Positions 40,376-61,865 of a stretch of 64,000 bases of DNA are shown here, one piece after another. Each line of letters starts with the position of its first letter. The stretch's first letter is position 1. Origin of the DNA: Dehalococcoidia bacterium (GTDB taxonomy: Bacteria > Chloroflexota > Dehalococcoidia > DSTF01 > RBG-16-68-14); assembly GCA_040902195.1 (NCBI GenBank), contig JBBDXS010000011.1, forward strand, positions 86,398 to 150,397. The letters are read 5' to 3'. Made by a program: the position numbers and the translations under genes. The notes beneath the pieces are model-generated. The model did not search any database. It was not told the DNA's origin and was given only the letters and a program-made list of their open reading frames with translations.

Positions 40376-43300
40376 CTACTGGCGGGTCGCGAACTCGGTC
40401 TCGGGGGCGACCTGGTAAATCTCCGTCTCACCGGACTGGAAGACCTTCTGGAGCATGCCGCCCAGGCCCGACTGGATGTTGTCGATGCCCACGCCTGGGA
40501 AGTACAGCTTCTCGAGCGCGCCGAGGATGACGTAGCGCACGTCGTACTTCTCGAGGATGTCCTGGGCCTCGGCCGGGTCACCCGTCTTGTAGAACAGCGC
40601 GACGTCTTCCTGGCGGTTCGTAACGAGCTGCGCGAAGAGCGGACGCTGCTGACGCTGGTGGAAGTCCCAGCCGGCTACGGCTGGCAGGCCGGTGTAGATC
40701 GTGTAGCGGCTGCCCCAACGATACCCCGCTCCCGTGACACCTTCGATGATGGTCGGCGAGCCCTGGACGTTATCGCGCATCCACTGGATGCCCGCGTAGT
40801 CGTCGGCGAGGTTGACCACTCCCCCCTGCTCGCCGAACTGCGCGCCGAGCATGTAAGCCATGCCGTCGTCTGTGCGCGGCTTGATCGCGCCCGGGTTATC
40901 GAAGCGGTCCTGCACGCGCTGCGGCGTCGCCACGATCGGGTAGACGACAGCGGCGAGCAGGAAGACCGCGACGCCCGCCCCGAAGGCCGGCTGGTACCAA
41001 TGCGAGAACCGGATCCGCGGTATCGGCACCCGTATCGCCGACACCTTCGGGCGGACGACATCGAGGACGTACCACGCACCGAACGCGGCGGCAGTGGCGT
41101 ACAGAAGCCAGATGTGCAGATAGAACTTGAAGACCGTGTTCATGCGCTGGATGTCACCGTCCAGCGTGAGCAGCTCGACGGCGGCGCTGAGCAGCAGCCC
41201 GATCGCGAGTAACGAGAACACGAAGAGCTGGATGCCATCGATAGCACGCACGCGCCGCACGCCCTGCCAGGCGAGCACGAGCAGTAGCGCCAGCCCGATT
41301 AGCGCAAACGCGACGACGGGCGTCGTATGGTGCACCGACCCTGCGTCGGTCGAGCCGGCGATCGGCTTCGGCCCGGGGGCAGGCTCGAAGATCGCGCCGA
41401 AGACGTCCCGCAGGAAGCGCTCGCCGGAGAGGCCGCGAGCGGTGAAGTTGCCCGGGGCGGCATCGAGGAACCACTGCAGCCTATCGGCCGCGACGATGCC
41501 CGCCAGTGACAAGGCGACGAACACGAGCGCCAGCGTTCCGAAGAAGCGCAGGCGGCCCATGCGACGCCAGGCCCGGCTCGACATAAAGACAACGAAGCCG
41601 CCGATCATGAAGAGCATGACGCCGAAATGCGCAAGGTACTGATTGAGGGGCGTCGTCTCGCGGTCGGTCATCTGGCTGAAGCCTGTCGCGGGCAGTTGGT
41701 AGTTCGCCTGGAACGGATAGAACAGCAGAACGGACAGCAGCAGCAGCACAAAGCACTTGATCGCTCCGCGGCCGAGTACCGCCCAGCTATTGCGTCCTTC
41801 CATCATGCGCTCGCTAATCAGCACCGCAGCGAAGCCGACGATCAGGAACGGCGGGTAGTCCCACGAGTTGATCCAGCGCAGCGAGCCGACGACCAGCGCC
41901 AGCACGACGACCATCCCCCAGGCCGCCCAGCGCTGGAATTGGACGCTCTCGCGCGTCAGGCGTGTCGCGTTGATAATGACGGCGGCGCCCACGGCAAGCG
42001 CTGTGACGGCGAACGGGATCGCCATCATATGGGCGTGCAGATCGGCGAAGAGGAAGCTGAAGAACGGGAACTCCGTGATGCTGATCGTCGGCGGCATCAT
42101 GCGGCTGGACGCCCAGTACCAGTCGTAGCCGAGCGGCACGCTCTGGCCATCGATGAGCTGCGCCTTCACGCCGCCGATGAGGCCCACGAGGCCTCCCAGC
42201 AGCGGCGCGTCGACGTGCCAGGGCGAGATCCTCGAGTAGTTATCGATGAGCTGCCGCGTGCCGCCCAGGTTCCCTGCGAACATGATTAAGAACACGGTGC
42301 CTAAGCCGGCCAGCACCGGCCCTCGGGGACCGATGCGACCGCCGCCGGGTCTCCGGCGCATGAAACGGCGCGTCGTTTCGGCAAGGTTGAAGCCGAGCGA
42401 ATATGCGGCGGCCACAGCGATCGCGAAGAACGTCGGCACCGCGAGGTTGAAGCCAACCTCGGGCAGGATGCCCGTGAGCTTGATGATCGTCGCCGTCAGG
42501 AACTGGCCGAAGTAGTAGTAGTTGATGTACGCGCCCGAGAACCACGGGTCGTACGGTGGCATCTCCGTGCTGCGGATGACCGCGTTCAGGTACGCGAAGT
42601 CCATCGGCTTCTCACCGCCCCGCGCTGGGTGCCAGATGTCCGGGTTCGCGAGGCGGACGAGGTAGATCAGCAGGAACGCGACGAGAAAGAGCGACTCCCA
42701 CATCAGGATCGAGCGCCAGCGCTCGCGGACGAAGTCGCGCAGGTTCTCGCGTGTCGCGTAGGCGACGAGCGAGCCGGCGAGCAGCATAAGCAGCAGCGCG
42801 ACGGCTATCGTCGTCCGGCTGAAGTCGAAGGCCTTCAGGCTCGCGCCGAGCCATACGACATACCCGAGCGTCAAGAAGCCCAGCGGCTTCGAGAGCAGAT
42901 AGCCGCGGTCGGGTAGTCCGCGGAACAGCAGCAGCACGATGGGCAGTACCGAAAGCGAGATGACTTCGAACACGAAGAGCCACGCCCAGAGCGGCACCTT
43001 GTTGGAGATGCTGTCCTCATCGAAGATTTCGCTGAACGTGCCGCCCTGCTGCTGCACTTTCAGGTCGTCCGGGCGCAGGAGCAGCGCGTTCTTCGCGGCT
43101 TGTTCCGGCGTCATGTTCACGCCCGGGACGAAGGAATCGGCGCCCAGCACGGCCACCGCGCGGTCGTGGCTATACGCCTGTGTCTTCTGGAAAATATAGA
43201 CCGGCGGATGGTCGTAGACCGTCCACGCCTCCTCTGCGCCGATGTCCGGTATCTCGATGCCGAGGACGCTCGGGTAGGACGTCTCCTTGTGGACGAGATC

Positions 43301-45220
43301 GAACCCCAGTTCGCCGCTGAACAGCGTGTCGTAGTAGCGCACGGTGACAGGCCAGATGGCTGGCGCGCGCGGGATCGTCTTCGAAAGACGCGTCGAGCTA
43401 AGGACGATGTAGTCGACGGCGTCGAGGTTTTGGACGAGCTTATCGACTTTCTCCGGCGTGTCGCCCTCGTAGTTATCGAACGTGAGATGTGTGTACGGCG
43501 CGCCATCGCCGATGCCGGGCAGCGCGTAGGGGACGGGGTCGTCCCAGTGCTCGTGCCCGATCGTCGAACCCTGCGGCACATTCGCATAGAACCAGCTCGA
43601 TGCCTGGATGCGCGTGACAGGCTCGGAGTAGATGTGGAAATAGGCGAGGCCCCAGAGGATCGTCAGCACCGGCACCGCGACGGCAATCGTGCGCACGGCC
43701 ACCGGCAGCGCGTTTGAGATGAGCTCGCGCGCGCTCACCGAAAGTCCGCTGAGCCATCGCGTTGCCGGCTCGGGTAACGACGGTTTGGCCGCCCACGACA
43801 GCATCGCCATGACGAGGGCGGCTGCGAACACCGTGAGCGCGGGGTAGAGCGGCAGGAAGTAGCGCATGTAGAGGGTGAACTGGCCGCCCATGAACAGGAA
43901 GTACCCGGCCACCCACACGAGCGGCACGATGAGCACAAGCTCTCGCTTTCGCACGACGCGCGAGGCAAGGTAGAAGAAGCCCAGCCAGCCTGCGATGCCC
44001 AGCGCCGGCCCCAGGCCCCAGACGATCATCTGCTGGAGCGGGTAGAGCCACGGCGTCCTGCCGATCCACTGCACGTTGGGCGGCCAGGACGAAGAGCCCC
44101 TCAGCAGGTTCTGCTGGTTGGTCTGGTCCGCCACCCACTCCGGGTTCAGGTTGAGCACCTGTCCGATGCCCTCGGTCAGCCCACCGCACTTCTGCTCGCA
44201 GGCGAAGTCGTCCTTCACGATATTGACGTCGCTAACGCCCGGCGTCTGGAAGGCGTACGGCTGGCCGATGCGGAAGATGACGAACGCTACGACGAGTGAG
44301 AGCCCGATGCCGAGCAGCGCGCGTCCGAACGCCATGCGCGCGCCCTGCGCCACGATGCTGCTCGCGCGCGGACGAGAGCGCCACATGTCCCCGATTACGG
44401 GTTCGACGGCGGGCCAGGCGCGCACGAAACCCGCTAGCCCGACGACGGGCATCAGCGACACGGCAGTCAGCTTCGACGCCGTCGCGAGGCCGACAAATAG
44501 CCCGGCCAGCGCGTAGTCGCGCCAGCGTCCGTCCTGCACGATGCGGATCGCGTAGTAGACGGCGCCTGCGGCGAAGCACGTCATGAACGCGTCGACGACA
44601 AAGAAATGGCTGTGCTGGATCGGCAGCGCGGCGAACGCGTACATGAGCGCCGCCAGCAACCCCGCCCGCGAGCCGAACAGGCGCTTCGCGATCAAGAACA
44701 CGAAGATGACCGTGCCGATATCGGCGAGGCCGCTCAGCGTGCGCCCGACGGAGTACAGGCCACTGTACGAATCGCGCTCGCCGAAGTCGAGCGGCCCGAC
44801 GCCGAGCGGTCCCGAGACAGCACCGCCGATCTTGCCCAGGAAGATCGGAACGGTGCCGTAGACGAAGCTCGGCACTTCCTGGTTGTACGGATTGAGCGAC
44901 GAGGTTTCCGTGTCGAAGAAGTCGGAGATGCTGCCAGGTATCGCCAGCTTGGACGTCGAATCGACGACGTGGCGCTCGTCCGGATGGAGGCCGTTGCCGC
45001 CGTCCCAGTTGATCGCGGTCAGGCGCAGCACGCCCGCGAGGATTACGATAACCGCCAGCGCCACGGCCGTGAGCATGGCCTCGGAGATCGCGAACTCTCG
45101 TGTGCGGGGCAGCGGACGTGAGATACCGGCGGGCGGCTGGCCACCGAAGGGCTCGGCGATCTGCGAGCGCATTTCGGGGGTGGGGCCGGTGGAGATTCTA
45201 CTGATCGGTTCTTCAGCCAT
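40376..45220 (-). CDS. Giant polytopic membrane protein: N-terminal ArnT-like GT-C region + DUF2298 / Chlor_Arch_YYY domain
   Basis: 1614 aa with more than 25 hydrophobic segments. PPYDPWFSGAYINYYYFGQF carries the YYY signature. Confidence 0.85.
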   Translation of the reverse strand: MAEEPISRISTGPTPEMRSQIAEPFGGQPPAGISRPLPRTREFAISEAMLTAVALAVIVILAGVLRLTAINWDGGNGLHPDERHVVDSTSKLAIPGSISDFFDTETSSLNPYNQEVPSFVYGTVPIFLGKIGGAVSGPLGVGPLDFGERDSYSGLYSVGRTLSGLADIGTVIFVFLIAKRLFGSRAGLLAALMYAFAALPIQHSHFFVVDAFMTCFAAGAVYYAIRIVQDGRWRDYALAGLFVGLATASKLTAVSLMPVVGLAGFVRAWPAVEPVIGDMWRSRPRASSIVAQGARMAFGRALLGIGLSLVVAFVIFRIGQPYAFQTPGVSDVNIVKDDFACEQKCGGLTEGIGQVLNLNPEWVADQTNQQNLLRGSSSWPPNVQWIGRTPWLYPLQQMIVWGLGPALGIAGWLGFFYLASRVVRKRELVLIVPLVWVAGYFLFMGGQFTLYMRYFLPLYPALTVFAAALVMAMLSWAAKPSLPEPATRWLSGLSVSARELISNALPVAVRTIAVAVPVLTILWGLAYFHIYSEPVTRIQASSWFYANVPQGSTIGHEHWDDPVPYALPGIGDGAPYTHLTFDNYEGDTPEKVDKLVQNLDAVDYIVLSSTRLSKTIPRAPAIWPVTVRYYDTLFSGELGFDLVHKETSYPSVLGIEIPDIGAEEAWTVYDHPPVYIFQKTQAYSHDRAVAVLGADSFVPGVNMTPEQAAKNALLLRPDDLKVQQQGGTFSEIFDEDSISNKVPLWAWLFVFEVISLSVLPIVLLLFRGLPDRGYLLSKPLGFLTLGYVVWLGASLKAFDFSRTTIAVALLLMLLAGSLVAYATRENLRDFVRERWRSILMWESLFLVAFLLIYLVRLANPDIWHPARGGEKPMDFAYLNAVIRSTEMPPYDPWFSGAYINYYYFGQFLTATIIKLTGILPEVGFNLAVPTFFAIAVAAAYSLGFNLAETTRRFMRRRPGGGRIGPRGPVLAGLGTVFLIMFAGNLGGTRQLIDNYSRISPWHVDAPLLGGLVGLIGGVKAQLIDGQSVPLGYDWYWASSRMMPPTISITEFPFFSFLFADLHAHMMAIPFAVTALAVGAAVIINATRLTRESVQFQRWAAWGMVVVLALVVGSLRWINSWDYPPFLIVGFAAVLISERMMEGRNSWAVLGRGAIKCFVLLLLSVLLFYPFQANYQLPATGFSQMTDRETTPLNQYLAHFGVMLFMIGGFVVFMSSRAWRRMGRLRFFGTLALVFVALSLAGIVAADRLQWFLDAAPGNFTARGLSGERFLRDVFGAIFEPAPGPKPIAGSTDAGSVHHTTPVVAFALIGLALLLVLAWQGVRRVRAIDGIQLFVFSLLAIGLLLSAAVELLTLDGDIQRMNTVFKFYLHIWLLYATAAAFGAWYVLDVVRPKVSAIRVPIPRIRFSHWYQPAFGAGVAVFLLAAVVYPIVATPQRVQDRFDNPGAIKPRTDDGMAYMLGAQFGEQGGVVNLADDYAGIQWMRDNVQGSPTIIEGVTGAGYRWGSRYTIYTGLPAVAGWDFHQRQQRPLFAQLVTNRQEDVALFYKTGDPAEAQDILEKYDVRYVILGALEKLYFPGVGIDNIQSGLGGMLQKVFQSGETEIYQVAPETEFATRQ

Positions 45221-46893: not shown

Positions 46894-47565
46894 TCACATC
46901 GCTGGCGATGCGACCGTGGCGACGCGGCCCGCGGCGGCGGTAGCGCGAGGCTGGCGGAGCAGCTCGATGAAGCGCGAGGCCTGTCGCTTCGAGAGCTGCG
47001 CCGGCACCGCGCCGAAGAGCGCCCGGCAGCGCTCGTCGACGGCGGGCTCAAGGACGCCGCTATCACGTCCGATCGAGTAGATCGCCTTGATCTGCGATGG
47101 CGTCGCCGGCGGCTGCTCGGCGTCGCGGATGACCTTGAGGTCGCTCCGCCGCACGGGCGAGTCGACGACGCGCTGGCGAGTGAGTGTAGACGTGGGGCGG
47201 CTTGTCGTTCGCCGAGGCTCGCTTCCGGGCTTGCGATTCACGGAGAAGTCGAAGTCCTCACAGAACTGAGTGCCGTAGCCGAGAGCGGCAAGCGCGCGGC
47301 CGAGCGCCTTCGTTTCGGCCTTTTCGATGTAGTCTCCGAAGTCGCCCTCAGTCTCGCTGCCCCAGCCGGTCGCGACGCCCTCGCCCGGGACGGTAACGCG
47401 CGCCCGGAAGAGGGCGAGGCCGTCGCCGAACTTGGCGAGCTCAGTCTCGATTATGGCGTCGGGGTGCTCGGTCCGGAGCCAGAGCAGCCGCCACTTCACC
47501 TCGAGGTAGTCCTTGCCGTGGAGATCGGAGAGGTACTTGCTGGCGTCGAAGTTCTTCGTCGACAT
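46894..47565 (-). CDS. Hypothetical protein with Rad52/DdrA-like single-strand-annealing-type N-domain (tentative)
   Basis: YLEVKWRLLWLRTEHPD...ATGWGSE...DYIEKAETKALGRALAALGYG resembles the Rad52-family core. The C-terminal helical domain is PSQIKAIYSIG...LSKRQASRFIELL. Confidence 0.55.
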   Translation of the reverse strand: MSTKNFDASKYLSDLHGKDYLEVKWRLLWLRTEHPDAIIETELAKFGDGLALFRARVTVPGEGVATGWGSETEGDFGDYIEKAETKALGRALAALGYGTQFCEDFDFSVNRKPGSEPRRTTSRPTSTLTRQRVVDSPVRRSDLKVIRDAEQPPATPSQIKAIYSIGRDSGVLEPAVDERCRALFGAVPAQLSKRQASRFIELLRQPRATAAAGRVATVASPAM

Positions 47566-47798
47566 CGTCTTCCACCACCTTTGTCCTGTCGAGAGATCAG
47601 GAATAGAATATCTGTTCTATGGCGGGTTGTCAAGCCCGGAGTACGATGCGACGCGATCTGGTGGTGAGATCCCCTCGAAGCATTACTCAGCGCGCGCGAT
47701 CGACAAATGCACCAGCGCAGCGGCTTAGCAGATCTGCGCGCACGATGTCGTTGTGGAGAAGTTGTGTGAAATCTTTATGTTGTTCGCACAAAACGATC

Positions 47799-47827
47799 TG
47801 GACAAGAACGAAGGTCACGCGTACAAT
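47799..47827 (+). promoter_or_regulatory. Promoter candidate for xerD
   Basis: TGGACA, a 17-nt spacer, then TACAAT. A near-palindrome ttgtgtgaa...ttcgcacaa lies just upstream. Confidence 0.4.
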
Positions 47828-47885
47828 AAGCCTCAGTTATCCCCAGGCCCCCGCGAATTCTTTTCAACGAAGTGAGGTCAGCGTC

Positions 47886-48797
47886 ATGGACGACCGCATC
47901 GGCCACTTCCTGCATTTTCTATCCGCAGAGAAGGGAGCTTCAGAAAACACCATCGCTGCCTACCGCAACGATCTCTCACAGTTCAACACCTTCCTTGGCA
48001 CCATTCATCTCAACGGCACACCAACTGACTGGCGTCTCGTCTCGAAAGACACGATCGTCCGCTACATCATCGAGCTGAAAGACAAGCGCTATGCAGAAGC
48101 ATCGGTCGCGCGAAAAGTTGCGGCCGTGAAATCGTTCTTTCAGTACTTGCAAGCGGAAGGGTCGATCCCGGCAAACCCAACGGAAAGTTTGGAGTCGCCA
48201 CGCGTCGGCAAGACGTTGCCCAAGCCGCTCAGCGTACAACAGGTTGACGAGCTGCTGGAGCAGCCGGCGAAGCGCCACACGCCGGAAGCATCGCGGGACC
48301 GCGCGATGTTGGAGCTCCTTTACGCGACGGGTCTCCGCGTCACGGAGCTCGTCTCACTCGATCTCGATAGCATCTCGCTCGACCCGCGTAGCCCCAGCGC
48401 GCGTTGCTTAGGCAAAGGCGCGAAGGAGCGCTCCGTACCGATCCACGAGCAAGCCATGCAGGCCCTGATTTCGTATCTAAATGACGGCCGCCAAAGGCTG
48501 GTCAAGCACAAGAAGGAGCGGGCGCTCTTCGTCAACCGCAGAGGCGAGCGGCTCACGCGTCAGGGCTTCTGGCTGATCCTCAAGCAGTACGCGCAACAAG
48601 CCGGCATCGAGGGGTCGGTGACGCCGCACTCGTTGCGACACAGCTTTGCCACGCACATGCTGAGGGGAGGAGCTCCTCTGCGCAGCGTGCAAGAGCTGCT
48701 CGGCCATGCAAACATCTCCACCACCCAGGTCTACACGCAGATCACGGACGAGCACGTCCGCCGCGTCTACGAATCGGCGCATCCGCGCGCGCATTAG
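47886..48797 (+). CDS. xerD: Tyrosine site-specific recombinase XerC/XerD family
   Basis: ATG 47886. SENTIAAYRNDL, LLYATGLRVTELVSL, HSLRHSFATHML, LLGHANISTTQVYT. Confidence 0.9.
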   Translation: MDDRIGHFLHFLSAEKGASENTIAAYRNDLSQFNTFLGTIHLNGTPTDWRLVSKDTIVRYIIELKDKRYAEASVARKVAAVKSFFQYLQAEGSIPANPTESLESPRVGKTLPKPLSVQQVDELLEQPAKRHTPEASRDRAMLELLYATGLRVTELVSLDLDSISLDPRSPSARCLGKGAKERSVPIHEQAMQALISYLNDGRQRLVKHKKERALFVNRRGERLTRQGFWLILKQYAQQAGIEGSVTPHSLRHSFATHMLRGGAPLRSVQELLGHANISTTQVYTQITDEHVRRVYESAHPRAH

Positions 48798-49878: not shown

Positions 49879-51673
<1,795 letters not shown>

Positions 51674-51725: not shown

Positions 51726-53267
51726 ATGATTAGTAGACGGATCGTCTTGTGGCTCCTCGCGGTCGCGTTCGCCGCGGTGGGCGTGGTGGCGGGGGCTCGC
51801 ATTGATACGACAGGAGCCAATCCCATGTCGGGCGTGGCGTCTCTATCAGCAGGCGAACACAGTGCATGCATTCTTACCACTGCGGGAGGTGCCAAGTGCT
51901 GGGGTGCGAACTACTACGGGGAGGTTGGCGACGGCACAGACACCTTGAGAAAGACCCCGGTGGACGTTGTCGGACTAACCAGCGGTGTCGCTTCCGTCAG
52001 CGTCGGATGGGATCACGCATGCGCCGTAACGGACGACGGCGTTGTGAAGTGTTGGGGAAAAAACGGAGCGGGCCAACTTGGCGCGGCGACGTCAGAGGAG
52101 TGCGTCGGCTTTCCAGGCTTGTTGCCGTGCAGCCATGTGCCCGTTGATGTCCAAGGAATCAGCCCGAATTCGGCGGTTGAAGTCAGCGCAGGCCGCCTGC
52201 ATAGTTGCGCGGTCATGACGGATGGCGGAGTCAAATGCTGGGGACATGGCTATTTCGGTGAGCTTGGTGATGGAGTAGTACCGCCGCCGAGCGGGCGGAT
52301 TGATGCAGTCGACGTTTCTGGCCTTGATGCACGCGCTGTTCACGTAGATGTGGGTTCGTACCATCACTCGTGTGCCCTTTTGGAGGATGGCACGGTGGCT
52401 TGCTGGGGTGATAACGCGGGCGGGCAAACAGGACCGAGCTCGGGTGCAAGTTGCGCTCCGAAGTACGAGGGCTGCAACATTGTCCCGATTACCGTTCCTC
52501 TACCGCAGCCCGCTACCGCCGTGACGTTGGGCTCATTTTTCACGTGCGCTCTCCTCACCTCTGGCGATGTCTCGTGTTGGGGGAACAACTATGTTGGCGA
52601 GCTTGGAGACGGACAGGCATGCGGAACATGGACCTGCGGTCCTGTCTTCGTGAAGAACCTCCACGGGAATGCACTGGCTATCGCATCAGGATCCGGCCAT
52701 GCCTGCGCGATCCTCGCAGAAGGCCTGAAGTGCTGGGGAGACAATAGCTACGGCCAGATTGGTGACGGGAACTTTACTTGGAATAAGAACCCGTACATTT
52801 TGCCCGTTTCGGTGATACTTCCACCAAGCGGTGTCGAAGAGATTGAAGGCGGGTGGGCGTTTACGTGCGTTAGGACAGAAGACGGCGCTGGCTGGTGTTG
52901 GGGACAGAATTCAACGTACCAGCTGGCAGCGGAGACAAGCGAGGAATGCCTGTATGGCCACCGATGCTCCACTACCCCCATCCAAGCGCTCAGCGAGGTG
53001 AAGCCAACGCCGACACCATCCCCGACGATCACGCCGTCACCCACACCGACGCGCACTCCGCGCCCATATCTTCTCGGCGATCCGACGTGTGATGGCGCGA
53101 TCAACAGCGTCGATGCTGCTGTAGTCCTGCAATTCGCGGGCGGGCTGGCGAACGCCATCGTCTGTCCACTCAACGCGGACGTCAACGGCGACTCCATCGT
53201 GAACGCCGTCGACGCGGCGCTCATCCTGCAGGTCACCGCTGGGCTGCTGGACAGATTGGCGCTCTAG
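51726..53267 (+). CDS. Secreted RCC1-repeat (beta-propeller) protein with Pro/Thr linker and C-terminal dockerin-like module
   Basis: ATG 51726 and a signal peptide. Repeated CWGxNxxGQLGDG-type blades, a linker KPTPTPSPTITPSPTPTRTP, then CDGAINSVDAAVVLQ...[18 protein letters not shown]. Confidence 0.85.
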   Translation: MISRRIVLWLLAVAFAAVGVVAGARIDTTGANPMSGVASLSAGEHSACILTTAGGAKCWGANYYGEVGDGTDTLRKTPVDVVGLTSGVASVSVGWDHACAVTDDGVVKCWGKNGAGQLGAATSEECVGFPGLLPCSHVPVDVQGISPNSAVEVSAGRLHSCAVMTDGGVKCWGHGYFGELGDGVVPPPSGRIDAVDVSGLDARAVHVDVGSYHHSCALLEDGTVACWGDNAGGQTGPSSGASCAPKYEGCNIVPITVPLPQPATAVTLGSFFTCALLTSGDVSCWGNNYVGELGDGQACGTWTCGPVFVKNLHGNALAIASGSGHACAILAEGLKCWGDNSYGQIGDGNFTWNKNPYILPVSVILPPSGVEEIEGGWAFTCVRTEDGAGWCWGQNSTYQLAAETSEECLYGHRCSTTPIQALSEVKPTPTPSPTITPSPTPTRTPRPYLLGDPTCDGAINSVDAAVVLQFAGGLANAIVCPLNADVNGDSIVNAVDAALILQVTAGLLDRLAL

Positions 53268-53270
53268 CCT

Positions 53271-54386
53271 ATGAAGATCGCGTTGCGGTTTCTTCTCCTC
53301 CTTTTCGTGATGGCCATGTTCCTCGGGGCGGGGGCGTCGCCGCCGGGGCGTGATGCGCTCGCGGCTGTTCCTGGCGGCAATGGCAAGATCGCATTTGTCA
53401 GCGACCGGGACGGAAATCAGGAGATCTACGTGATGAACGCGGACAGCAGCGGCCAGGCTAATCTCACTAACCATCCGGAGGCCGACTTCGAGCCCGCCTG
53501 GTCTCCGGATGGATCACGTATCGCATTCGTTAGTGACAGAGACGGCAACGAAGAGATCTACGTGATGGATGCGAGTTCCGGCGCGGTTCAGCGGCTCACG
53601 GATAGCCCAGCAAGAGATCGATGGCCGTCCTGGTCGCCGGACGGCTTGTGGATCGTATTGTCGAGCAATCCATCCGGCGATCCTACTTCCTCCTTCAGTG
53701 ATCTGTTCGTTGTGGCCGCCGACGGCAGTTCGAAAACGCGGCTCACCCATGAAGACGGGACGCTGCGCTTCCCGGACTGGTCGCCCGATGGGTCGCGCAT
53801 TGTATTCACGGGTCTTCTTTTCTCTGACCTTCTCATTGTCAACTCAGACGGCTCCGGCATGCACTTCCTCTCCAGGAAGCACTACGGCGACATGTCCCCA
53901 GATTGGTCCCCAAACGGGACAAGCATTGTCTACTCCGGCTTCTTCTATCAGCAGGACTTCGAGATCTATGCTGTCGATGCCGACGGCAGCAACTCCCGGC
54001 CCATTACGGATAACAATGTCTTGGACGACCATCCCTCGTGGTCGCCGGACGGTTCGAAAATTGCATTCTGCCGGAAAGCTGCGTACTCCGACCCCGGGGA
54101 AATCTATGTCATGCGCTCCGACGGAACAGAAGTGGTGCGACTGACCCAGTTCCCCGGTGACGACTGCGACCCGGACTGGCAGCCCATCGTCGTGGGGAAT
54201 GCGAACTGTCAGGGCGGCATCGATGCCATCGACGCGGCGCTGGTACTGCAGTACGGCGCGGGGCTGATCGCTACGCTGCCGTGCCCCGAGTATGCCGACG
54301 TGAACGGCGACGGACGCATCGACGCCCTGGATGCCGCGCTGATCCTCCAGTTCGCCGCGGGCCTGCTCGATAGCCTGCCGGCGTAG
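53271..54386 (+). CDS. Secreted TolB-like PD40 beta-propeller protein with C-terminal dockerin-like module (1 of 5)
   Basis: Signal peptide. Repeats of the form [30 protein letters not shown]-terminus: [16 protein letters not shown]...[28 protein letters not shown]. Confidence 0.88.
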
Positions 54387-54450
54387 CGTCGGCTTGGGCG
54401 TGGTCTGCTAGAATAGGCCGTTCGCGTGTGCCGATAGCGGGAGAACGTTC

Positions 54451-55545
54451 ATGATGATGCGCTTCGTCCCCCGGACAGCACTGCTCCTTACAATCGCCGT
54501 GGCGCTGGCGGCCGCGCTGGCGGGAAGCGACGCGCGGGCACAGGAGGGCGGCGGCATTATCGTGCCGCCTCCGCCGCCCGCAGGCGATATCGTCTTCGCG
54601 AGCAACCGCTTCGGCAACTACGAGATCTTCACGATGACCGTCACCGGCTCGGGCCAGGCGCGGCGGACGACGGCGGCCGGCGACGATACGCTGCCCGTCT
54701 GGTCGCCGGACGGCACGAAGATCGCGTTCGTGAGCAACCGCGACGGCAACGACGAGATCTACGTCATGAACGCCAACGGCACGAGCCAGACGAACGTCTC
54801 GAACAACATTGCCGACGACTCGTACCCGAGCTGGTCGCCGGACGGCACAAAGATCGCGTTCTCGACGAACCGCGACGGTGACTTCCAGATCTACGTGATG
54901 GACGCGAACGGGGGCGCGGCCGGCAACCTTAGCAACGGCCCGAACGATGACTACGCGCCATCGTGGTCTCCGAACGGACAGAAGATCGCGTTCTTTCGCA
55001 ACGACGCGATCTGGACGATGAACGCAAACGGCGGCAGTCAGACGGAGCTGGAGTCGTTCCCGAGCACCGTCATCTCCCGCCCCGTCTGGAAGCCGGATGG
55101 CAGCCGCATCGCGACTACTCGGTACGGCGATGCCAATGTGTGGGCGATCGATGCGGACGGCTCGAACCTCAAGTCGCTGTTCGCCGGCGTCTTCCCCGCC
55201 TGGTCGCCTACAGGCAACCGCATGGTCTTTGTCCGCGACGGCGAGATCCGGACAGCAGACGAGGACGGCGGGGATCAGATCCAGCTCACCAGCAACGACG
55301 ACAACGACCTCTATCCTCACTGGAAGGGCATCACCGGCAACGGCGGCCTTGTCGGTGACGTCGACTGCGACGGCTCCGTGGACGCGATCGACGCGGCACT
55401 TGTGCTCCAGCTCGGGGTGGGCTTCGTAGATTCACTGCCGTGCCTGGAGAGCGCAGACGTGAACGAGGACGGGAGTATCGACGCTGTAGACGCCGCGCTG
55501 ATTCTCCAGTACGCAGCGGGCCTGCTCGATAGCCTGCCGCCGTAG
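54451..55545 (+). CDS. Secreted PD40 propeller + dockerin-like module (2 of 5)
   Basis: [29 protein letters not shown] repeats. C-terminus: [18 protein letters not shown]...[18 protein letters not shown]. Confidence 0.88.
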   Translation: MMMRFVPRTALLLTIAVALAAALAGSDARAQEGGGIIVPPPPPAGDIVFASNRFGNYEIFTMTVTGSGQARRTTAAGDDTLPVWSPDGTKIAFVSNRDGNDEIYVMNANGTSQTNVSNNIADDSYPSWSPDGTKIAFSTNRDGDFQIYVMDANGGAAGNLSNGPNDDYAPSWSPNGQKIAFFRNDAIWTMNANGGSQTELESFPSTVISRPVWKPDGSRIATTRYGDANVWAIDADGSNLKSLFAGVFPAWSPTGNRMVFVRDGEIRTADEDGGDQIQLTSNDDNDLYPHWKGITGNGGLVGDVDCDGSVDAIDAALVLQLGVGFVDSLPCLESADVNEDGSIDAVDAALILQYAAGLLDSLPP

Positions 55546-55566
55546 CGAGCCGCTACAGTAGGCGTC

Positions 55567-56658
55567 GTGGACAGGCGCGCCGTTTTGTGGCTGCTCGCGC
55601 TCGCGTTCGCGGCGGTCGGTTTGTTCGCGGACGGGTCGCCGCGCGCACAGCCCGTCGAGGCGGCGTTTCCCGGTGCGAACGGCCGGATCGTGTTCATGCG
55701 CTGGATGCCGCCGTTCGACATCTTCACGATGAGCGCGGAAGGCACGCGCGCCGTCAACCTCACCAACCACCCCGCGAACGAATCGACGCCGGCGTTCTCG
55801 CCGGACGGCTCGCGCATCGCGTTCATGAGCGATCGCGGCGCGAACCTTGATGTCTACGTGATGAACGCGGACGGCAGCGGCCTCTTGCGGCTGACCGACC
55901 ATCCCTCGCACGACTACCAGCCTGCGTGGTCCTCCGACGGGACGCGCATCGCCTTCGTCGCCGGCCGCCACGGCGCGCCGGAGATCTATGTGATGAATGC
56001 GGACGGCTCCGACGAGACGCGGCTGACCACGAACGGCGCGAATGAAATCCATCCCACTTGGTCTTCGGCCGGGATCGCGTTTCAGTCGGACCGCGACGGC
56101 CAGGACGAGATCTACGTGATGAGCGCGGACGGCTCGGGCCAGGTGAACCTCACTGGCCACCCGGCGACGGACAGCCATCCTGCGTGGTCGCCCGACGGCT
56201 CGAGGCTCTTGTTCATTAGCGACCGGGACAGCAACTCGGACGTGTACGTGATGAACGCCGACGGCAGTGCGCCCGCCAACCTCACCAACGACCCGTCCAG
56301 CGACGAGACTGCCGAGTGGTCGCCGGGCGGCGCACACATCGTGTTTACGAGCGACCGCGACGGCGACCGCGAGGTCTTCGTCATGGACGCATCGGGAGCC
56401 ACCGTCGTGCAGCTCACGCACAACGACATCGATGAATGCTGCCCGGACTGGCAGCCTGTCGTCAAAGGCAATGCGAACTGTCAGGGCGGCATCGATGCGA
56501 TCGACGCGGCGCTTGTGTTGCAGTTCGGCGCAAGCCTAATCGGTCCGCTGCCTTGCCCCGAGTATGCCGACGTGAACGGCGACGGACGGGTCGACGCCCT
56601 GGATGCCGCGCTGATCCTCCAGTTCGCCGCCGGCCTGCTCGATAGCCTGCCGCCGTAG
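55567..56658 (+). CDS. Secreted PD40 propeller + dockerin-like module (3 of 5)
   Basis: GTG start. [29 protein letters not shown] repeats. The dockerin DNA is about 90% identical to that of gene 1. Confidence 0.88.
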   Translation: MDRRAVLWLLALAFAAVGLFADGSPRAQPVEAAFPGANGRIVFMRWMPPFDIFTMSAEGTRAVNLTNHPANESTPAFSPDGSRIAFMSDRGANLDVYVMNADGSGLLRLTDHPSHDYQPAWSSDGTRIAFVAGRHGAPEIYVMNADGSDETRLTTNGANEIHPTWSSAGIAFQSDRDGQDEIYVMSADGSGQVNLTGHPATDSHPAWSPDGSRLLFISDRDSNSDVYVMNADGSAPANLTNDPSSDETAEWSPGGAHIVFTSDRDGDREVFVMDASGATVVQLTHNDIDECCPDWQPVVKGNANCQGGIDAIDAALVLQFGASLIGPLPCPEYADVNGDGRVDALDAALILQFAAGLLDSLPP

Positions 56659-56734
56659 CAGCGCTTGACCTCCAGTCGCGCCGCGGCGTACCGTTCCGCT
56701 AACGAAGCGCTCCTCTGGCGAACGGGAGAAGCAC

Positions 56735-57823
56735 ATGCCCCGCATCGGCCTCGCCCTCGGTTTCATCGCGACGCTGTTCTGCGTGACGTTTGTAAGCGGG
56801 CCCGCGCGCGTCTCGGCCGGCGGCCCGACACCGCCGCTCGATGGCGCTATCGTCTTCGTGAGCGACCGCGACGGCGACTTCGAGCTGTATCTCACAGGCC
56901 GCTTCCTCGATGGCGACGTACAGCTCACTCACAACGCGACGAACGACGACGACCCCGACTGGTCGCCGGACGGGACGAAGATCGCGTTCATGCGCGCGTC
57001 CAACATCTGGGTGATGAACGCAGACGGCACGGGGGAAGTGCAGCTCACCTCCATGGGCCGCGACTCGCAGCCGGCCTGGTCACCCAATGGGCTGCGGATT
57101 GCGTTCATGCGCGAGCTGGCCGGCGGCAACCGCGAGGTCCTCGTGATGTTCGACGATGGCAGCGGCGTCATCAACCTGTCGAACAGCCCCGGCAATGACT
57201 TCTCGCCCGATTGGTCGCCGGACGGCATGAAGATAGTCTTCGATACGAGTCGCGACGGAAACCGCGAGATCTACACGATGTTCGCCAACGGCTCCGGCCA
57301 GACCAATATCACGGACAATCCCGGTAACGACGCGGACGCGAGCTGGGCGCTCGCCGGCTTTCGCATCGCCTTCGCCAGCGATAGGACGGGCAACACCGAG
57401 CTCTATTCAATGGAGACAGACGGCGGTGATGTACGCCAGCTTACGGACGACTCCGCCTTCGACGGCGAGCCTTCGTTTGCTCCGAGCGGTATCGGCATCG
57501 TGTTCCGCAGCAACCGCGACGGCAACGAAGAGATCTACGGCCTTTCGCCCGTCGGGCCGTACCGCATCACGGATAACCCCGCGTTCGAGCGCGCGCCGGA
57601 CGTGCAACCGGTCTCGAACGCCGGCCCGGGCGACACGAGCTGCGATAAGCGCGTTGACGCGATCGATGCGTCGATCGTCCTGCAGTACGACGCAAACCTG
57701 ATCGAGGGCACGTACTGCATCGTGAACGGCCACATGAACGATGACAGCTTCATCAACAGCATCGACGCCGTGATCATGCTTCAGTTCGTGGCCGGACTGA
57801 TCGATCACATCCCCGTCTCATAG
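56735..57823 (+). CDS. Secreted PD40 propeller + divergent dockerin-like module (4 of 5)
   Basis: [14 protein letters not shown] repeats. C-terminus: [18 protein letters not shown]...[17 protein letters not shown]. Confidence 0.85.
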
Positions 57824-57851
57824 GGAGAGCGAGTGGGCCGATACTAGACCT

Positions 57852-58940
57852 ATGCGCCGCCTCGTATTCGCAATCGCCATCTCAACGCTCGTTGCGCCGC
57901 TGCTGCTCGGCGGCCACTCGAGCGCGCGAGCGGGCGCGCCCGCCGCGATCGCCTTCGCCAGCGACCGCGACGACGACTTCTACGAAATCTACTCGATGGC
58001 CGCCGACGGCAGTAACGTCACGCGCCTGACGAACAACCCGGCCTTCGATGAGCACCCCGCGTGGTCGCCGGACGGCAAGCAGATCATCTTCGATAGCGAC
58101 CGGGGCGGCCAGCGGCAGGTCTGGCTCATGGACGCGGACGGCGGCAACGCACGCCGCGTCAGCGCGGAGGGCGCCTTCGGCTCGTACCCGGCGTGGTCGC
58201 CCGACGGCGAAAGGATCGCCTACCTGGGGGGCAACGACGTGGACGAGAACATCGATGTGTACGTGATGGACCTCGACGGCTCGAACGTCGAGCGGCTCAC
58301 CGACGATCCGGCCTGGGACGGCGCGCCGGCGTGGGCGCCGAACAACGAGCTGATCGCTTTCGTGAGCGAGCGCGACGGCAACCGCGAGATCTACGTGATG
58401 AACGCCGACGGCAGCAACGAGACGAATATCACGCACTTCCCAGGCAACGACAGCGAGCCGGACTGGATCCCCAACGCGGGAGAGATCGCCTACCGGCGCG
58501 ACGGCGATATCGCGGTCGCGTGGTCGGACGGGACCAATCTGGTTAACGTTACGAGCAACACGGACATGTCGGTATCGAGCCCAGGGTGGTCGCCCGGTGG
58601 CGCCGCGATCGCGTTCGTCGGGGCCACGGAGGGCCAGTCCGACATCTACACCGTGCAGTACTTTGGAACTCACACCATCGAGCGCCTGACCGACGATCCG
58701 GCGAACGATCTCGATCCGGACTGGCGGTCGGGGCCGTCGGCGGGGCCGGGCGACGTGAGCTGCGATGGCGTCGTGAACGCCGTCGACGCGGCGCTTGTGC
58801 TGCAGCTCACGTCGGGCCTGATCGACTTCACCGCCTGCGCGTACAAAATGGACGTCAACGGCGACGGCCGCGTCGATTCCGTCGATGCGGCGCTCATCCT
58901 GCAGTTCAGCGTCGGCCTGATCGATACGCTGCCGCCGTAG
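57852..58940 (+). CDS. Secreted PD40 propeller + dockerin-like module (5 of 5)
   Basis: [29 protein letters not shown] repeats. C-terminus: [18 protein letters not shown]...[18 protein letters not shown]. Confidence 0.88.
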
Positions 58941-58979
58941 GCTTGCCGCGCTGTCCACAGCCGCCTCATACTGGCGGGC

Positions 58980-60710
58980 ATGGTACGAGCCGTCTCGATA
59001 GCACTGCTCATCCTCTTCTGCGCGCTGAGCGTCCAGAGCGCGCCGCCGGCGCGCGCCGCCGCCTTCGCCGTCGATAGCGTACTGGACGCCGTCGATGCGG
59101 CCGCGGGCGACGGCGTCTGCGCCACGATCGAAGGAGACTGCACGCTGCGAGCCGCGCTCCAGGAAACGAACGCCCTGCCCGGCGCCGACACGATCTCGCT
59201 TCCCTTCGGGACGTACGAGCTCGCGATCGCGGGCCCGGACGAGGACGCCGCCGCTACCGGCGACCTCGACATTCTCGATGACGTGACGATTACCGGCGTG
59301 GACGCCGCGACGACGATCGTCGACGGCGGCGGGCTCGATCGCGCGCTTGACATCGACCCGCTGATGACCGGCGTGGAGGTGCAACTCGTTGGCCTGACGT
59401 TGCGAAACGGCAATGCCGCTGTGGGCGGTGGCCTTCGCAACGCCGCGATGCTCTCGATACGCGACAGCGTAATCGCAAGCAACCACGCGGACGCCGGCGG
59501 CGGCATCAACAACCGCAATGAAGGAACGCTCGACCTGCATGAGGTGCTCGTGGATGGCAACTCGGCTGGTACCGCCGGCGGCCTACAAAATGAGGGCATC
59601 GTGACTGTGCGTTCCAGCACGTTCACGGAGAACTCGTCCCAAGACGACGGCGGCGCCGTGATCAACCACGGGACGCTCTCGGCCACCGACTCCGCGTTCG
59701 CCGGCAACACGTCGGGCGACAACGGCGGCGCGTTCTGGGGCGACGGGACGCTCTCACTCGTCGACAGTACCTTGATCAACAACACCGCCGCGGACGAAGG
59801 CGGCGCCATCGTGAGCTTCGGCGGCAACGTAACGCTGACGCGGTCGGCGGTGGAGGGCAACCACGCGGGCCGGCTGCGCGGCGGCGGGCTCGTCAACTTC
59901 GGCTTGAGCACGATGACGCTCGTCGATACGAGGGTGCGCAACAACGCCGCGGCGACCAACGGCGGCGGCATCCTCAACAACGGCACGATGACGCTAGAGC
60001 GCAGCACGATCGATGCGAACACGGCAGGAGCGAACGGCGGCGGCATCCACGGCGATGCCGGCAGCTCGCTCTCGCTGCTCAACTCCACAATCAGCGGCAA
60101 TTTGGCGCCGGCCGGCGGCGGGATATCGAACGGCGGCACGCTGACGCTCGCCTTCTCCACCATCGCGTTCAACGCAGGGACTGGCGTGACGATAACGGGC
60201 GAGGCGCACGCGAATGGCACGATCTTCGCGAATAATACCGGGGCCAACTGCCAGGGCCTGGTTCAGTCGGAAGGCCACAATCTGGAAGATACATCCCTCT
60301 GCAATTTCTCATCGCCTGGCGATCTTAGTGGCGTCGATCCGCAGCTCGAGCCGCTACAGCCGGGCCTGACGGCCACGCACCCGCTCGGTCCGGGCAGCGA
60401 AGCCATCGACGCGGGGGGCGCGGACTGTCCCGCGACGGACCAGCGAGGCACCGCGCGGCCCCAGGGCGTCGCGTGCGACACCGGCGCGTTCGAGGTGGAG
60501 CAGGAAGGGCCGCAGGCTGGAGACGTGAACGGCGACGGGCGCATCGATAGCGTGGATGCGGCGCTCATCCTCCAGCACACCGCCGGGCTGCTGGACACGC
60601 TGGCCTATCCAGCGGCCGCAGACGTGAACCACGACGGACGGGTCGATAGCATCGACGCGTCGTTGGTCCTCCAATTCGCTGCGGGACTCATCGACAACCT
60701 ACCGGCTTAG
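58980..60710 (+). CDS. Secreted CSLREA-motif / parallel beta-helix (Pmp-like GGxxxN repeat) protein with C-terminal dockerin-like module
   Basis: Signal peptide. GDCTLRAALQETNALPGADTISL is a CSLREA-type N-cap. About 12 repeats follow of the form N.A..GGGI.N.GTL.L..S. C-terminus: [18 protein letters not shown]...DVNHDGRVDSIDASLVLQ. Confidence 0.85.
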   Translation: MVRAVSIALLILFCALSVQSAPPARAAAFAVDSVLDAVDAAAGDGVCATIEGDCTLRAALQETNALPGADTISLPFGTYELAIAGPDEDAAATGDLDILDDVTITGVDAATTIVDGGGLDRALDIDPLMTGVEVQLVGLTLRNGNAAVGGGLRNAAMLSIRDSVIASNHADAGGGINNRNEGTLDLHEVLVDGNSAGTAGGLQNEGIVTVRSSTFTENSSQDDGGAVINHGTLSATDSAFAGNTSGDNGGAFWGDGTLSLVDSTLINNTAADEGGAIVSFGGNVTLTRSAVEGNHAGRLRGGGLVNFGLSTMTLVDTRVRNNAAATNGGGILNNGTMTLERSTIDANTAGANGGGIHGDAGSSLSLLNSTISGNLAPAGGGISNGGTLTLAFSTIAFNAGTGVTITGEAHANGTIFANNTGANCQGLVQSEGHNLEDTSLCNFSSPGDLSGVDPQLEPLQPGLTATHPLGPGSEAIDAGGADCPATDQRGTARPQGVACDTGAFEVEQEGPQAGDVNGDGRIDSVDAALILQHTAGLLDTLAYPAAADVNHDGRVDSIDASLVLQFAAGLIDNLPA

Positions 60711-60782: not shown

Positions 60783-61865
60783 ATGAGACGCCTGCGCGGC
60801 CGCCCGCGCCATCCCGATGTCCTAACGCCGCGCGAGTGGGAGGTAGCGTCGCTGTTGCGGCGCGGGCTGAGCAATCGCGAGATCGGCGGGCGGCTCGGCA
60901 TCAGCCACGCCGGCGCGAAGTACCACGTAGCGGAGATCCTTGGGAAGCTTGGCGTCCCGAGCCGTCTCGATGCGGCTGCGTTGCTCTCGGCGGGCGAGGG
61001 CGCCATTACGCCGGGCTTCGTCTGGCGAAGGGAGGAACCCATGTGCGACAATCGAGGCGTGGACGACCGTCCCATCGGCTTCTTCGACTCCGGCGTTGGC
61101 GGGCTGACCATCTGGCGCGCGACGAAGAAGCTCCTGCCAAACGAAAGTTTGATCTTCCTCGCCGACTCAGGCCACGTCCCGTACGGCGAGAAATCGACCG
61201 CTGAGCTGCGCGACCTCACAGTTCGCATCTGCCGCTTCCTCTTGAGCAAGGACGCCAAGATGATCGTCGTCGCGTGTAACACAGCGACCGTGCACAGCAT
61301 CTCCTACCTGCGCGAGACGTTTCCGGACGTGCCGTTCGTCGGGGTCGTCCCTGTCGTGAAGACGCTGGCGCGACAGACGCGCACCGGCACCATCGCCGTG
61401 CTCTCGACGCCGGCGACTGCGGCCAGCCCGTACCTGGCCGGCCTCGTCGAGGAGTTCGCGCCGGACAAGCACGTGATCAACATCGGCTGCGACGGGCTCG
61501 AGGACCTGGTCGAAGAAGGACGCGTCCGCACGCGGGCCGCGACGGCGCTGCTCGAGCGGCACCTGGCGCCGATACGCGGCAGCGAGGCGGACGTGCTTGG
61601 GCTGGGCTGTACGCACTACCCGTTCCTGCGTCAGCGCATCAAGCGCATCCTGGGACCGGGCGTACGCGTCTACGACCCGTCGCGCCCGGTCGCGCGGCGC
61701 GTGCGGCAGCTGCTGTCGCAGCGCGACGCCTTCGCGGGCGACGGCGCACCCACGTACGAGTTTTATACAACGGGCGATCCGGCCGTCTTCAAGCGCGTCG
61801 CGACAACGCTGCTGCGCTTCCCCGTCACTGACGCGGGCTACGTCGATCTGGAGGAGTGGGGCTAG
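60783..61865 (+). CDS. murI: LuxR/GerE-type HTH domain fused to glutamate racemase
   Basis: The N-terminus LTPREWEVASLLRRGLSNREIGGRLGISHAGAKYHVAEILGKLGV is a GerE HTH. From about residue 95: IGFFDSGVGGLT, VVACNTAT and LGCTHYPFL are MurI catalytic Cys motifs. Confidence 0.85.
   Translation: MRRLRGRPRHPDVLTPREWEVASLLRRGLSNREIGGRLGISHAGAKYHVAEILGKLGVPSRLDAAALLSAGEGAITPGFVWRREEPMCDNRGVDDRPIGFFDSGVGGLTIWRATKKLLPNESLIFLADSGHVPYGEKSTAELRDLTVRICRFLLSKDAKMIVVACNTATVHSISYLRETFPDVPFVGVVPVVKTLARQTRTGTIAVLSTPATAASPYLAGLVEEFAPDKHVINIGCDGLEDLVEEGRVRTRAATALLERHLAPIRGSEADVLGLGCTHYPFLRQRIKRILGPGVRVYDPSRPVARRVRQLLSQRDAFAGDGAPTYEFYTTGDPAVFKRVATTLLRFPVTDAGYVDLEEWG

Follow-up and report, generated by a model that had tools for sequence, protein, structure and literature searches.

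Seven adjacent dockerin-bearing genes of a Dehalococcoidia bacterium probably encode the cargo of a non-cellulosomal display system built on cohesin-dockerin pairing

The stretch of DNA analysed here (the window) comprises 64,000 nucleotides of the 160,538-bp contig JBBDXS010000011.1 from the metagenome-assembled genome of an uncultured Dehalococcoidia bacterium of the phylum Chloroflexota. It carries an array of seven plus-strand open reading frames (ORFs) at positions 51726-60710, which are separated by six gaps of 3, 64, 21, 76, 28 and 39 nt. All seven genes share one layout, with a signal-peptide-like N-terminus, a body of repeat fold and a dockerin at the C-terminus. One body is an RCC1 propeller, five are TolB-like six-bladed PD40 propellers and one is a CSLREA/choice-of-anchor-Q beta-helix. 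We consider it probable that the window holds the cargo of a non-cellulosomal display system of Chloroflexota based on cohesin-dockerin pairing, whose receptor would be encoded at another place in the genome. The array is best read as relying on the classical cohesin-dockerin mechanism, because the same dockerin clade was found adjoining bona fide cohesins in related loci. We infer that the seven proteins are exported by Sec. They share one docking module, a type-I-like dockerin from a clade of Chloroflexota, whose two F-hand segments are predicted to bind Ca2+. Each dockerin would plug in a Ca2+-dependent manner into a cohesin of a cell-anchored receptor, the receptors being either fixed to the cell themselves or connected in chains by adaptors. 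In this way the cell surface, or a multi-protein complex, would display five TolB-like propellers, an RCC1-like propeller and an RbtA-like beta-helix. The analogy with TolB and the propellers of S9 peptidases makes peptides or proteins likely ligands of the propellers. The genes of the array are listed below, with signal peptides as predicted.

g1, 51726-53267, plus strand: signal peptide, seven-bladed RCC1-like propeller, Thr/Pro-rich linker KPTPTPSPTITPSPTPTRTPRP, C-terminal dockerin
g2, 53271-54386, plus strand: signal peptide, TolB-like PD40 propeller, dockerin
g3, 54451-55545, plus strand: signal peptide, PD40 propeller, dockerin
g4, 55567-56658, plus strand: signal peptide, six-bladed PD40 propeller, dockerin; GTG start, start codon uncertain
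g5, 56735-57823, plus strand: signal peptide, PD40 propeller, degenerate dockerin; MEX2158771.1
g6, 57852-58940, plus strand: signal peptide, PD40 propeller, dockerin; MEX2158772.1
g7, 58980-60710, plus strand: signal peptide, CSLREA-type motif CTLRAALQE, right-handed parallel beta-helix, choice-of-anchor Q domain (aa 453-507), then dockerin; MEX2158773.1

The C-terminal modules are genuine dockerins. Using the Pfam gathering score of 22.9 bits for Dockerin_1 (PF00404) as cutoff, six of the seven modules were recognised with 27.6-51.1 bits, and g5 gave no Pfam match to Dockerin_1 at E<=0.01. A hidden Markov model (HMM) of the dockerin clade, built from 88 dockerins of other contigs with the window sequences excluded, matched all seven modules end to end with 76-102 bits. 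As this model contains no window sequence and still matched g5 (E 3e-17 at Z=5.8e9), g5 is a degenerate member of the clade and not a non-member. The profile of the window modules, in turn, matched 24 distinct solved dockerins of the PDB and nothing else (best 4fl4_A, 5e-11), with most of the alignments spanning both segments. The C-terminus of the g7 model forms a three-helix module, which was superposed by Foldseek on 4uyp_B, 4fl4_G and 4fl4_A with TMt values of 0.82-0.85 and an rmsd of 1.3-1.6 A over 67 residues at 36-37% identity. Generic EF-hand or thrombospondin-like repeats were considered and rejected, since the full-length profile matches only dockerins in the PDB and the fold agrees. 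The positions of the modules were as follows.

g1 dockerin, 53076-53264, plus strand: aa 451-513; Dockerin_1 27.6 bits, clade HMM 76.5 bits
g2 dockerin, 54195-54383, plus strand: aa 309-371; Dockerin_1 34.6 bits, clade HMM 102 bits
g3 dockerin, 55354-55542, plus strand: aa 302-364; Dockerin_1 37.4 bits, clade HMM 100.6 bits
g4 dockerin, 56467-56655, plus strand: aa 301-363; Dockerin_1 29.7 bits; model helices 311-321 and 344-354
g5 dockerin, 57629-57820, plus strand: aa 299-362; clade HMM 80.2 bits
g6 dockerin, 58749-58937, plus strand: aa 300-362; Dockerin_1 33.8 bits, clade HMM 95 bits
g7 dockerin, 60519-60707, plus strand: aa 514-576; Dockerin_1 51.1 bits; model helices 524-534 and 557-567

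According to the alignment and the models of g4 and g7, each module consists of two duplicated segments, both with a 12-residue Ca2+ loop followed by a helix. Scoring the ligand positions 1, 3, 5, 9 and 12, we found segment 2 canonical in six of the seven modules, the exception being g5, whose position 1 is His in place of Asp; every ligand position of segment 1 has an oxygen-bearing side chain in each of the seven modules. Six window modules contain a Cys pair, formed by position 4 of loop 1 and the residue five positions before loop 2, g7 being the sole window dockerin without it. Among 89 modules from outside the window both cysteines were present in 72, neither in 12, the second only in 5 and the first only in none, a co-occurrence which suggests a stabilising disulfide. 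The clade consensus also includes LPC between its two segment signatures. The helix faces (DAALxLQ..AGL) are nearly invariant in 98 modules from many contigs. Dockerin identity amounts to 50-62% even across unrelated cargos, with the modules of g2 and g4 near-identical by eye in the alignment, which suggests a common partner or shared receptor.

Candidates for such receptors were found in related loci. A metagenome scan with the dockerin profile yielded 282 relatives, and the following counts rest on 80 fetched loci. An earlier homology search with the same kind of profile had given almost only short contig-end fragments that were uninformative about cargo, and a search with PD40 proteins was swamped by generic PD40 proteins. 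Roughly 20 of the fetched loci contained dockerin genes in tandem, the maximum being four such genes in one locus. The architectures of the window recurred in BLAST comparisons, RCC1 plus dockerin nine times, CSLREA beta-helix plus dockerin three times (including the genome locus L001) and PD40 plus dockerin twice. Pfam assigned Dockerin_1 to 57 of 60 related proteins examined, whose cargos comprised RCC1, PD40, Kelch, VWA, PPC, subtilase and GHL10 domains, most proteins being without any known cargo domain. In 16 related proteins the dockerin is not C-terminal and lies at the N-terminus, just past the signal peptide (loci L011, L012, L023, L024, L034, L041, L050, L060, L067, L070, L071, L077 and L081).

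The cohesins of these loci were first recognised by eye in the list of secreted neighbours and then confirmed by Pfam and an iterated clade HMM; an all-versus-all BLAST clustering of the neighbours had missed them because they are too divergent. Above the Pfam gathering score for Cohesin (PF00963; 24.1 bits) were L059:3405-7931 with 74.5, L070:3288-4154 with 25.6 and L031:733-1497 with 27.2 bits. The iterated clade HMM detected 23 domains, which are spread over 18 ORFs from 16 loci, and L084 and L085 each contributed one more. A profile of 22 of these modules matched more than 30 solved cohesins (best 3l8q_A, 1.7e-11), among them also the non-cellulosomal cohesins of NagJ and 2xdh.

Several of these cohesins stand directly beside dockerin genes of the clade. 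In locus L059 four dockerin genes and three more cohesin ORFs directly follow the gene of a 1,509-aa scaffoldin, whose five cohesins are connected by Thr/Pro linkers. In L084, which belongs to Chloroflexi bacterium RBG_16_68_14, three tandem dockerin genes are directly followed by a cohesin gene. An ORF with two cohesins, supported by the clade HMM only, ends 4 nt before a PD40-plus-dockerin gene in L029, the latter being 45% identical to the body of g3. L008 contains an RCC1-plus-dockerin gene and a cohesin ORF 9 kb apart. At the C-terminus of the single-cohesin carriers of L070, L031 and L084, an (L/F)PxTG-like motif precedes a hydrophobic stretch and a basic tail. Furthermore, seven loci encode mini-adaptors of about 240-255 aa composed of signal peptide, cohesin and dockerin, which could chain or self-associate like adaptor scaffoldins:

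L017:881-1642
L047:1-762
L061:9464-10192
L076:335-1090
L079:402-1118
L080:448-1176
L085:13835-14512

Some cohesins are followed by a divergent dockerin-like module of the pattern LEGDV.xDCxVNxxD...D[IV]DVxDLQxVYGRxGSTC, which was not called by Pfam. It may represent a second dockerin type for hierarchical assembly and occurs in four ORFs:

L059:3405-7931
L059:13449-15047
L008:18885-20192, minus strand
L082:2090-3541

We are aware of the fact that a number of observations weigh against a cohesin partner for the window dockerins. In the window Pfam found no cohesin among 43 context ORFs, the clade cohesin HMM applied unfiltered to all six-frame ORFs of at least 40 aa reached a best E of 1, and the same model found no scaffoldin with two or more cohesins in the 64 kb, a scaffoldin of this kind being seen in the related locus L059 only. 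Most related loci of at least 8 kb are without a nearby cohesin, six having one (L008, L010, L053, L059, L061 and L070). Within 10 kb no cohesin was seen in L001, a Dehalococcoidia locus which at 53% identity is the genome relative closest to g7. The cohesin-bearing metagenome loci, except L084, were assigned by dockerin similarity and GC content (median 0.66) only. The second Ca2+ loop of g5 is degenerate, and the survey of Peer et al. of 2009 reportedly includes genomes with dockerins but without cohesins.

The main rival explanation draws on these points. It holds that the dockerins are orphans in a genome without cohesin and serve as Ca2+-dependent stabilising or adhesion domains, which we regard as unlikely, though not lightly dismissed. 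Their targets would be the S-layer, an envelope glycan or another dockerin, or else they would only hold the secreted propellers in their folded state, a proposal to which we attach the same low likelihood. Besides the window without cohesin and the surroundings of L001, this explanation can claim the near-invariant helix faces, which fit a structural role or a universal ligand better than the species-specific recognition of the cellulosome type, and the several putative GT-C-type glycosyltransferases of the window. It is countered by the repeated proximity of the same dockerin clade to genuine cohesins and by the cohesin-dockerin fusions within the clade, which make sense only if the modules interact. 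Orphan dockerins keep their weight as an explanation because most of the long related loci and the closest genomic relative of g7 lack a nearby cohesin. We nevertheless favour docking to a cohesin receptor that would be encoded elsewhere in the genome.

The bodies joined to the dockerins have repeat folds of the binding type. In g1 Pfam found WD40_RLD with 220.6 bits (cut-off 150) and RCC1_2 in seven stretches, so that the seven repeats of an RCC1-like domain (PF25390 / PF00415) are present above cut-off. PD40 scores were 148.3 bits for g2, 131.1 for g3, 169.4 for g4, 119.6 for g5 and 109 for g6. These five bodies are paralogues with 34-47% mutual identity, from which it follows that the duplications are old. 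Against the TolB model TIGR02800 the five proteins scored 159-236 bits (g2 194.5 bits), below the curated cut-off of 343 bits, with the matches covering only profile positions of about 229-403 of 418; as only the propeller part was matched, the N-terminal domain of TolB is absent. The AlphaFold2 model of g4 (pLDDT 90.4) shows a six-bladed propeller followed by two dockerin helices, and its best Foldseek match was TolB 1c5k (E 3e-20, rmsd 2.2 A over 268 columns). Next after TolB, Foldseek listed S9-peptidase propellers as structural neighbours of the PD40 body. The PD40 proteins end in the dockerin directly after the propeller, where the catalytic domain of an S9 peptidase would sit. Two identities were rejected for g2-g6, that of TolB orthologues, owing to the scores below the TIGR02800 cut-off and the missing N-terminal domain, and that of S9/DPP IV peptidases, owing to the merely partial DPPIV_N matches and the absence of an alpha/beta-hydrolase domain.

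For g7 no Pfam domain was matched in the body, and the NCBIfam model choice_anch_Q (NF041518) scored 70.7 bits versus a cut-off of 25. CSLREA_Nterm (TIGR04214) was unmatched at E<=0.01 although the motif CTLRAALQE is visible, with C54, L56, R57 and A59 invariant in 38 relatives; the relatives themselves match CSLREA_Nterm and GlyGly_RbtA weakly. The AlphaFold2 model (pLDDT 92.6) is a right-handed beta-helix, for which the 2025 structure of Rhombotarget A (9cdv) was the best Foldseek match (E 9e-6). No match to the Rhombotarget A model TIGR04212 was obtained and the C-terminus is a dockerin, the similarity thus being structural only. Further fold neighbours with low TM-scores were pectate lyase, mannuronan/alginate epimerases, PL6 lyases and phage tailspikes. 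Many relatives with the same CSLREA/beta-helix/choice-of-anchor-Q body carry a dockerin and others differ C-terminally. At least one, P0250, has RTX-type repeats after the shared body, and P0299 and P0300 have a precomputed SLH match, with about 230-250 residues beyond the choice-of-anchor-Q domain. The dockerin therefore appears to take the place that other surface-association modules have elsewhere.

Neither a catalytic domain nor a match to a glycoside hydrolase (GH), polysaccharide lyase (PL), carbohydrate esterase (CE) or carbohydrate-binding module (CBM) family was found by Pfam and NCBIfam in any of the seven proteins. A non-catalytic g7 body is plausible, although its beta-helix fold is also that of many polysaccharide lyases and epimerases. 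This bears on a second alternative, an extracellular degradative complex, in which the PD40 propellers would gate the substrate or capture peptides and work alongside dockerin-borne peptidases encoded elsewhere; we judge it improbable, more so than orphan dockerins, and hold its corollary, that g7 is a polysaccharide-active beta-helix enzyme, to be just as doubtful. Same-clade dockerins are fused to subtilase S8 in 2, to PPC in 4 and to GHL10 in 1 of the 60 related proteins, an M10 peptidase gene lies just upstream of a dockerin ORF in L085, and the S9 propellers and the lyases and epimerases among the fold neighbours point in the same direction. On the other hand, none of the seven proteins has a catalytic domain, most same-clade cargos are without an enzyme domain, and the TM-scores of g7 to enzymes are low (0.2-0.5), with RbtA as best match. 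Docking and a degradative complex would not be at odds, and the S8, M10 and GHL10 cargos elsewhere give a hint of the latter.

With these data the architecture proposed for this DNA in an earlier note was substantiated: seven same-strand genes with short gaps (3-76 nt), Sec-like N-termini in all seven, C-terminal dockerin-type modules (Pfam in six, clade HMM in seven, profile matches in the PDB, g7 fold) with paired Ca-binding loops (segment 2 canonical in six, oxygen-bearing ligands of segment 1 in all), the set of one RCC1-like, five PD40 and one CSLREA beta-helix scaffold (Pfam, NCBIfam, models), and a 64-kb window without cohesin (Pfam on 43 ORFs, six-frame clade HMM). The further statement that no catalytic domain is present holds at the level of the HMM searches and is qualified by the lyase- and epimerase-like fold of g7. 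For the N-termini a heuristic check of charge, hydrophobicity and cleavage motif and not SignalP was used, which found in all seven one or two K/R, a 12-residue hydrophobic core (mean Kyte-Doolittle 2.6-3.1) and small-x-small motifs.

Could the array be an incidental cluster of paralogues with vestigial dockerins, arisen by tandem duplication and without a common assembly function? The paralogy of g2-g6 and the partly degenerate dockerin of g5 would agree with this. However, the paralogues are old (34-47% identity) and their dockerins far better conserved than the bodies, three unrelated cargo folds share the module, and the three cargo-plus-dockerin architectures recur in other contigs, so that we consider such an origin very improbable indeed. 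The conservation of the dockerins already suggests purifying selection. Seven adjacent dockerin genes with no dockerin outside of them in the 64 kb are, moreover, not a pattern due to chance. A promoter and terminator scan remained at chance level, and the statement on operon structure is therefore limited to the short gaps. The GC content at third codon positions (GC3) was 0.65 for g1, 0.75 for g2 and 0.84-0.90 for g3-g7, most other coding-like ORFs of the window showing about 0.8-0.9. The bin of 52-54 kb is the stretch of lowest GC content (0.599) in a window of 66% G+C. Judged by this composition, the first two genes of the array may have been acquired later.

Compared with described systems, the cargo side proposed here has clear parallels. 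Excerpts of PMC13487519, citing Peer, Smith, Bayer, Lamed and Borovok (2009, FEMS Microbiol Lett 291:1), and of PMC10066038 and PMC2930009 describe non-cellulosomal dockerin proteins as predominantly non-catalytic. As far as the Peer et al. 2009 set is portrayed there, the likeness consists in Dockerin_1 on secreted, mostly non-catalytic proteins of non-cellulolytic organisms and in cohesins and dockerins that are not necessarily co-located. The window differs in being from Dehalococcoidia and in its tandem arrangement of seven genes that share a single conserved subtype of dockerin, and its relatives show a hierarchical set of a five-cohesin scaffoldin, adaptors and LPXTG-like anchors. Excerpts of PMC4611034 present the amylosome of Ruminococcus bromii as cohesin-dockerin pairing outside cellulose degradation. 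The NagH/NagJ toxin complexes of Clostridium perfringens are likewise a non-cellulose pairing, with NagJ cohesins matched by the Chloroflexi cohesin profile. Both systems tether enzymes (amylases, glycosidases), whereas the window cargo is without a recognisable enzyme domain. Non-catalytic dockerin proteins are hence an already known class, and non-cellulose cohesin-dockerin systems are established. No description of such systems in Chloroflexota was found in the searchable literature, which did not cover the Peer et al. 2009 survey; a lineage-wide system in the related loci may therefore be undescribed.

With the cellulosome of Clostridium (Acetivibrio) thermocellum the window modules share the dockerin fold and the two-segment F-hand architecture, and the window relatives share scaffoldins with several cohesins joined by Thr/Pro linkers. 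In contrast to the cellulosome, no glycoside hydrolase, CBM or cohesin was found among the seven genes or in the window. At the recognition positions, which we take to be Ser-Thr and Lys-Arg in C. thermocellum, the window modules read Ala/Ser-Val/Ile and Leu-Gln, and their type carries the Cys pair. Lacking both a carbohydrate-active enzyme (CAZyme) and a scaffoldin, the array is not a cellulosome. Many dockerins of Ruminococcus flavefaciens belong to repeat proteins that are not enzymes and have been suggested to help organise the cell surface (PMC2930009). The dockerin bodies of that species are LRR, serpin, transglutaminase or of unknown type. Its ScaE is a sortase-anchored cohesin carrier, and the cohesin carriers of the window relatives also have sortase-type signals. 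Phylum, dockerin groups and cargo folds (PD40, RCC1, CSLREA beta-helix) differ, and the window provides no fibre-degrading context. TolB of the Tol-Pal system shares the six-bladed PD40 propeller with an rmsd of about 2.1-2.3 A over about 268 columns, whereas the window PD40 proteins lack its N-terminal domain and have an added dockerin tail. The body of g7 is the same module as in the RbtA/CSLREA/choice-of-anchor Q proteins, but g7 ends in a dockerin and RbtA in a GlyGly-CTERM rhombosortase signal. We know of no established function of RbtA, for which the literature search yielded just a paper on macrocycle design and papers on the secretome and proteome of Acinetobacter.

In the light of these comparisons, three views expressed in the earlier note had to be revised. 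A partnerless new kind of assembly is contradicted by the adjacency of the same dockerin clade to cohesins in related contigs. That dockerins classically tether glycoside hydrolases does not turn the array into an anomaly, given the predominantly non-catalytic nature of non-cellulosomal dockerin proteins stated in PMC13487519. Finally, the set is not uncharacterised in its domains, since the NCBI pipeline names g5 "DPP IV N-terminal domain-containing protein", g6 "dockerin type I domain-containing protein" and g7 "choice-of-anchor Q domain-containing protein". As these names follow the domains, the domain content has already been recognised by routine annotation. The genes are also found in the sequence data SRR27977660 of the source sample.

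The array is flanked by enolase (50390-51673) upstream and by a fusion of a LuxR-type helix-turn-helix (HTH) with glutamate racemase (60783-61865) downstream. The latter, MEX2158774.1 ("glutamate racemase" in the NCBI annotation), combines a GerE/LuxR-type HTH (aa 12-66, E 3e-13) with an Asp/Glu racemase domain, an unusual fusion of regulator and enzyme which follows the array immediately. The window context is largely housekeeping, with GAPDH, enolase, fumarase, malate dehydrogenase, thiamine genes and a sugar-nucleotide cluster. Glycan machinery is indeed present in the 64 kb, as had been remarked before, and comprises four GT-C-like giant membrane proteins, GT2, UDP-glucose dehydrogenase, epimerases and RmlD. 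Between it and the array lie thiamine, GAPDH, recombinase and enolase genes, so that any functional link would be conjecture. By domains and topology the following four proteins look like GT-C-type glycosyltransferases:

580-2733: giant membrane protein, DUF6541
5156-8002, minus strand: giant membrane protein, PMT_2 and PA14
29613-32207: giant membrane protein, 14 transmembrane segments without Pfam match
40376-45220, minus strand: giant membrane protein of 1,614 aa, PMT_2 and DUF2298

Speculatively, they might glycosylate Thr/Pro linkers such as that of g1. Elsewhere in the window, the ORFs 15663-17033 and 17018-18415 are tandem paralogues in which an alpha/beta-hydrolase is fused to the catalytic domain of an adenylate/guanylate cyclase. 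A tyrosine recombinase ORF of the XerC/D type (47619-48797) lies in a stretch of lower GC content (46894-48797) beside an ORF of 223 aa without Pfam match (46894-47565, minus strand); this region may be a small integrated element or a housekeeping Xer gene. Scans for tRNA genes and Rfam families in the window were empty.

Taking the related loci together, a wider proposal can be made, on which we are evenly divided: Chloroflexota (Dehalococcoidia and relatives) would possess an undescribed hierarchical non-cellulosomal cohesin-dockerin "surface-ome". It would consist of cohesins anchored by sortase signals, mini-adaptors of signal peptide, cohesin and dockerin, multi-cohesin scaffoldins with a second, divergent dockerin-like type, a disulfide-stapled dockerin clade, and beta-propeller and beta-helix binding proteins, not CAZymes, as cargo. 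The seven-gene array would be the cargo battery of one genome for this "surface-ome". Cohesin-dockerin pairing is known best for holding cellulosomes together, and many non-cellulolytic lineages also carry these modules. The array offers a compact, testable case with seven cargos and one dockerin type, for which the related loci supply candidate cohesin receptors, anchored ones included. If true, the proposal would give protein engineers a further, orthogonal cohesin-dockerin pair that may be stabilised by a disulfide. Dehalococcoidia and their relatives among the Chloroflexota abound in subsurface and soil and are for the most part uncultured; the organisation of their cell surface is poorly known, and the system would reveal how they decorate it.

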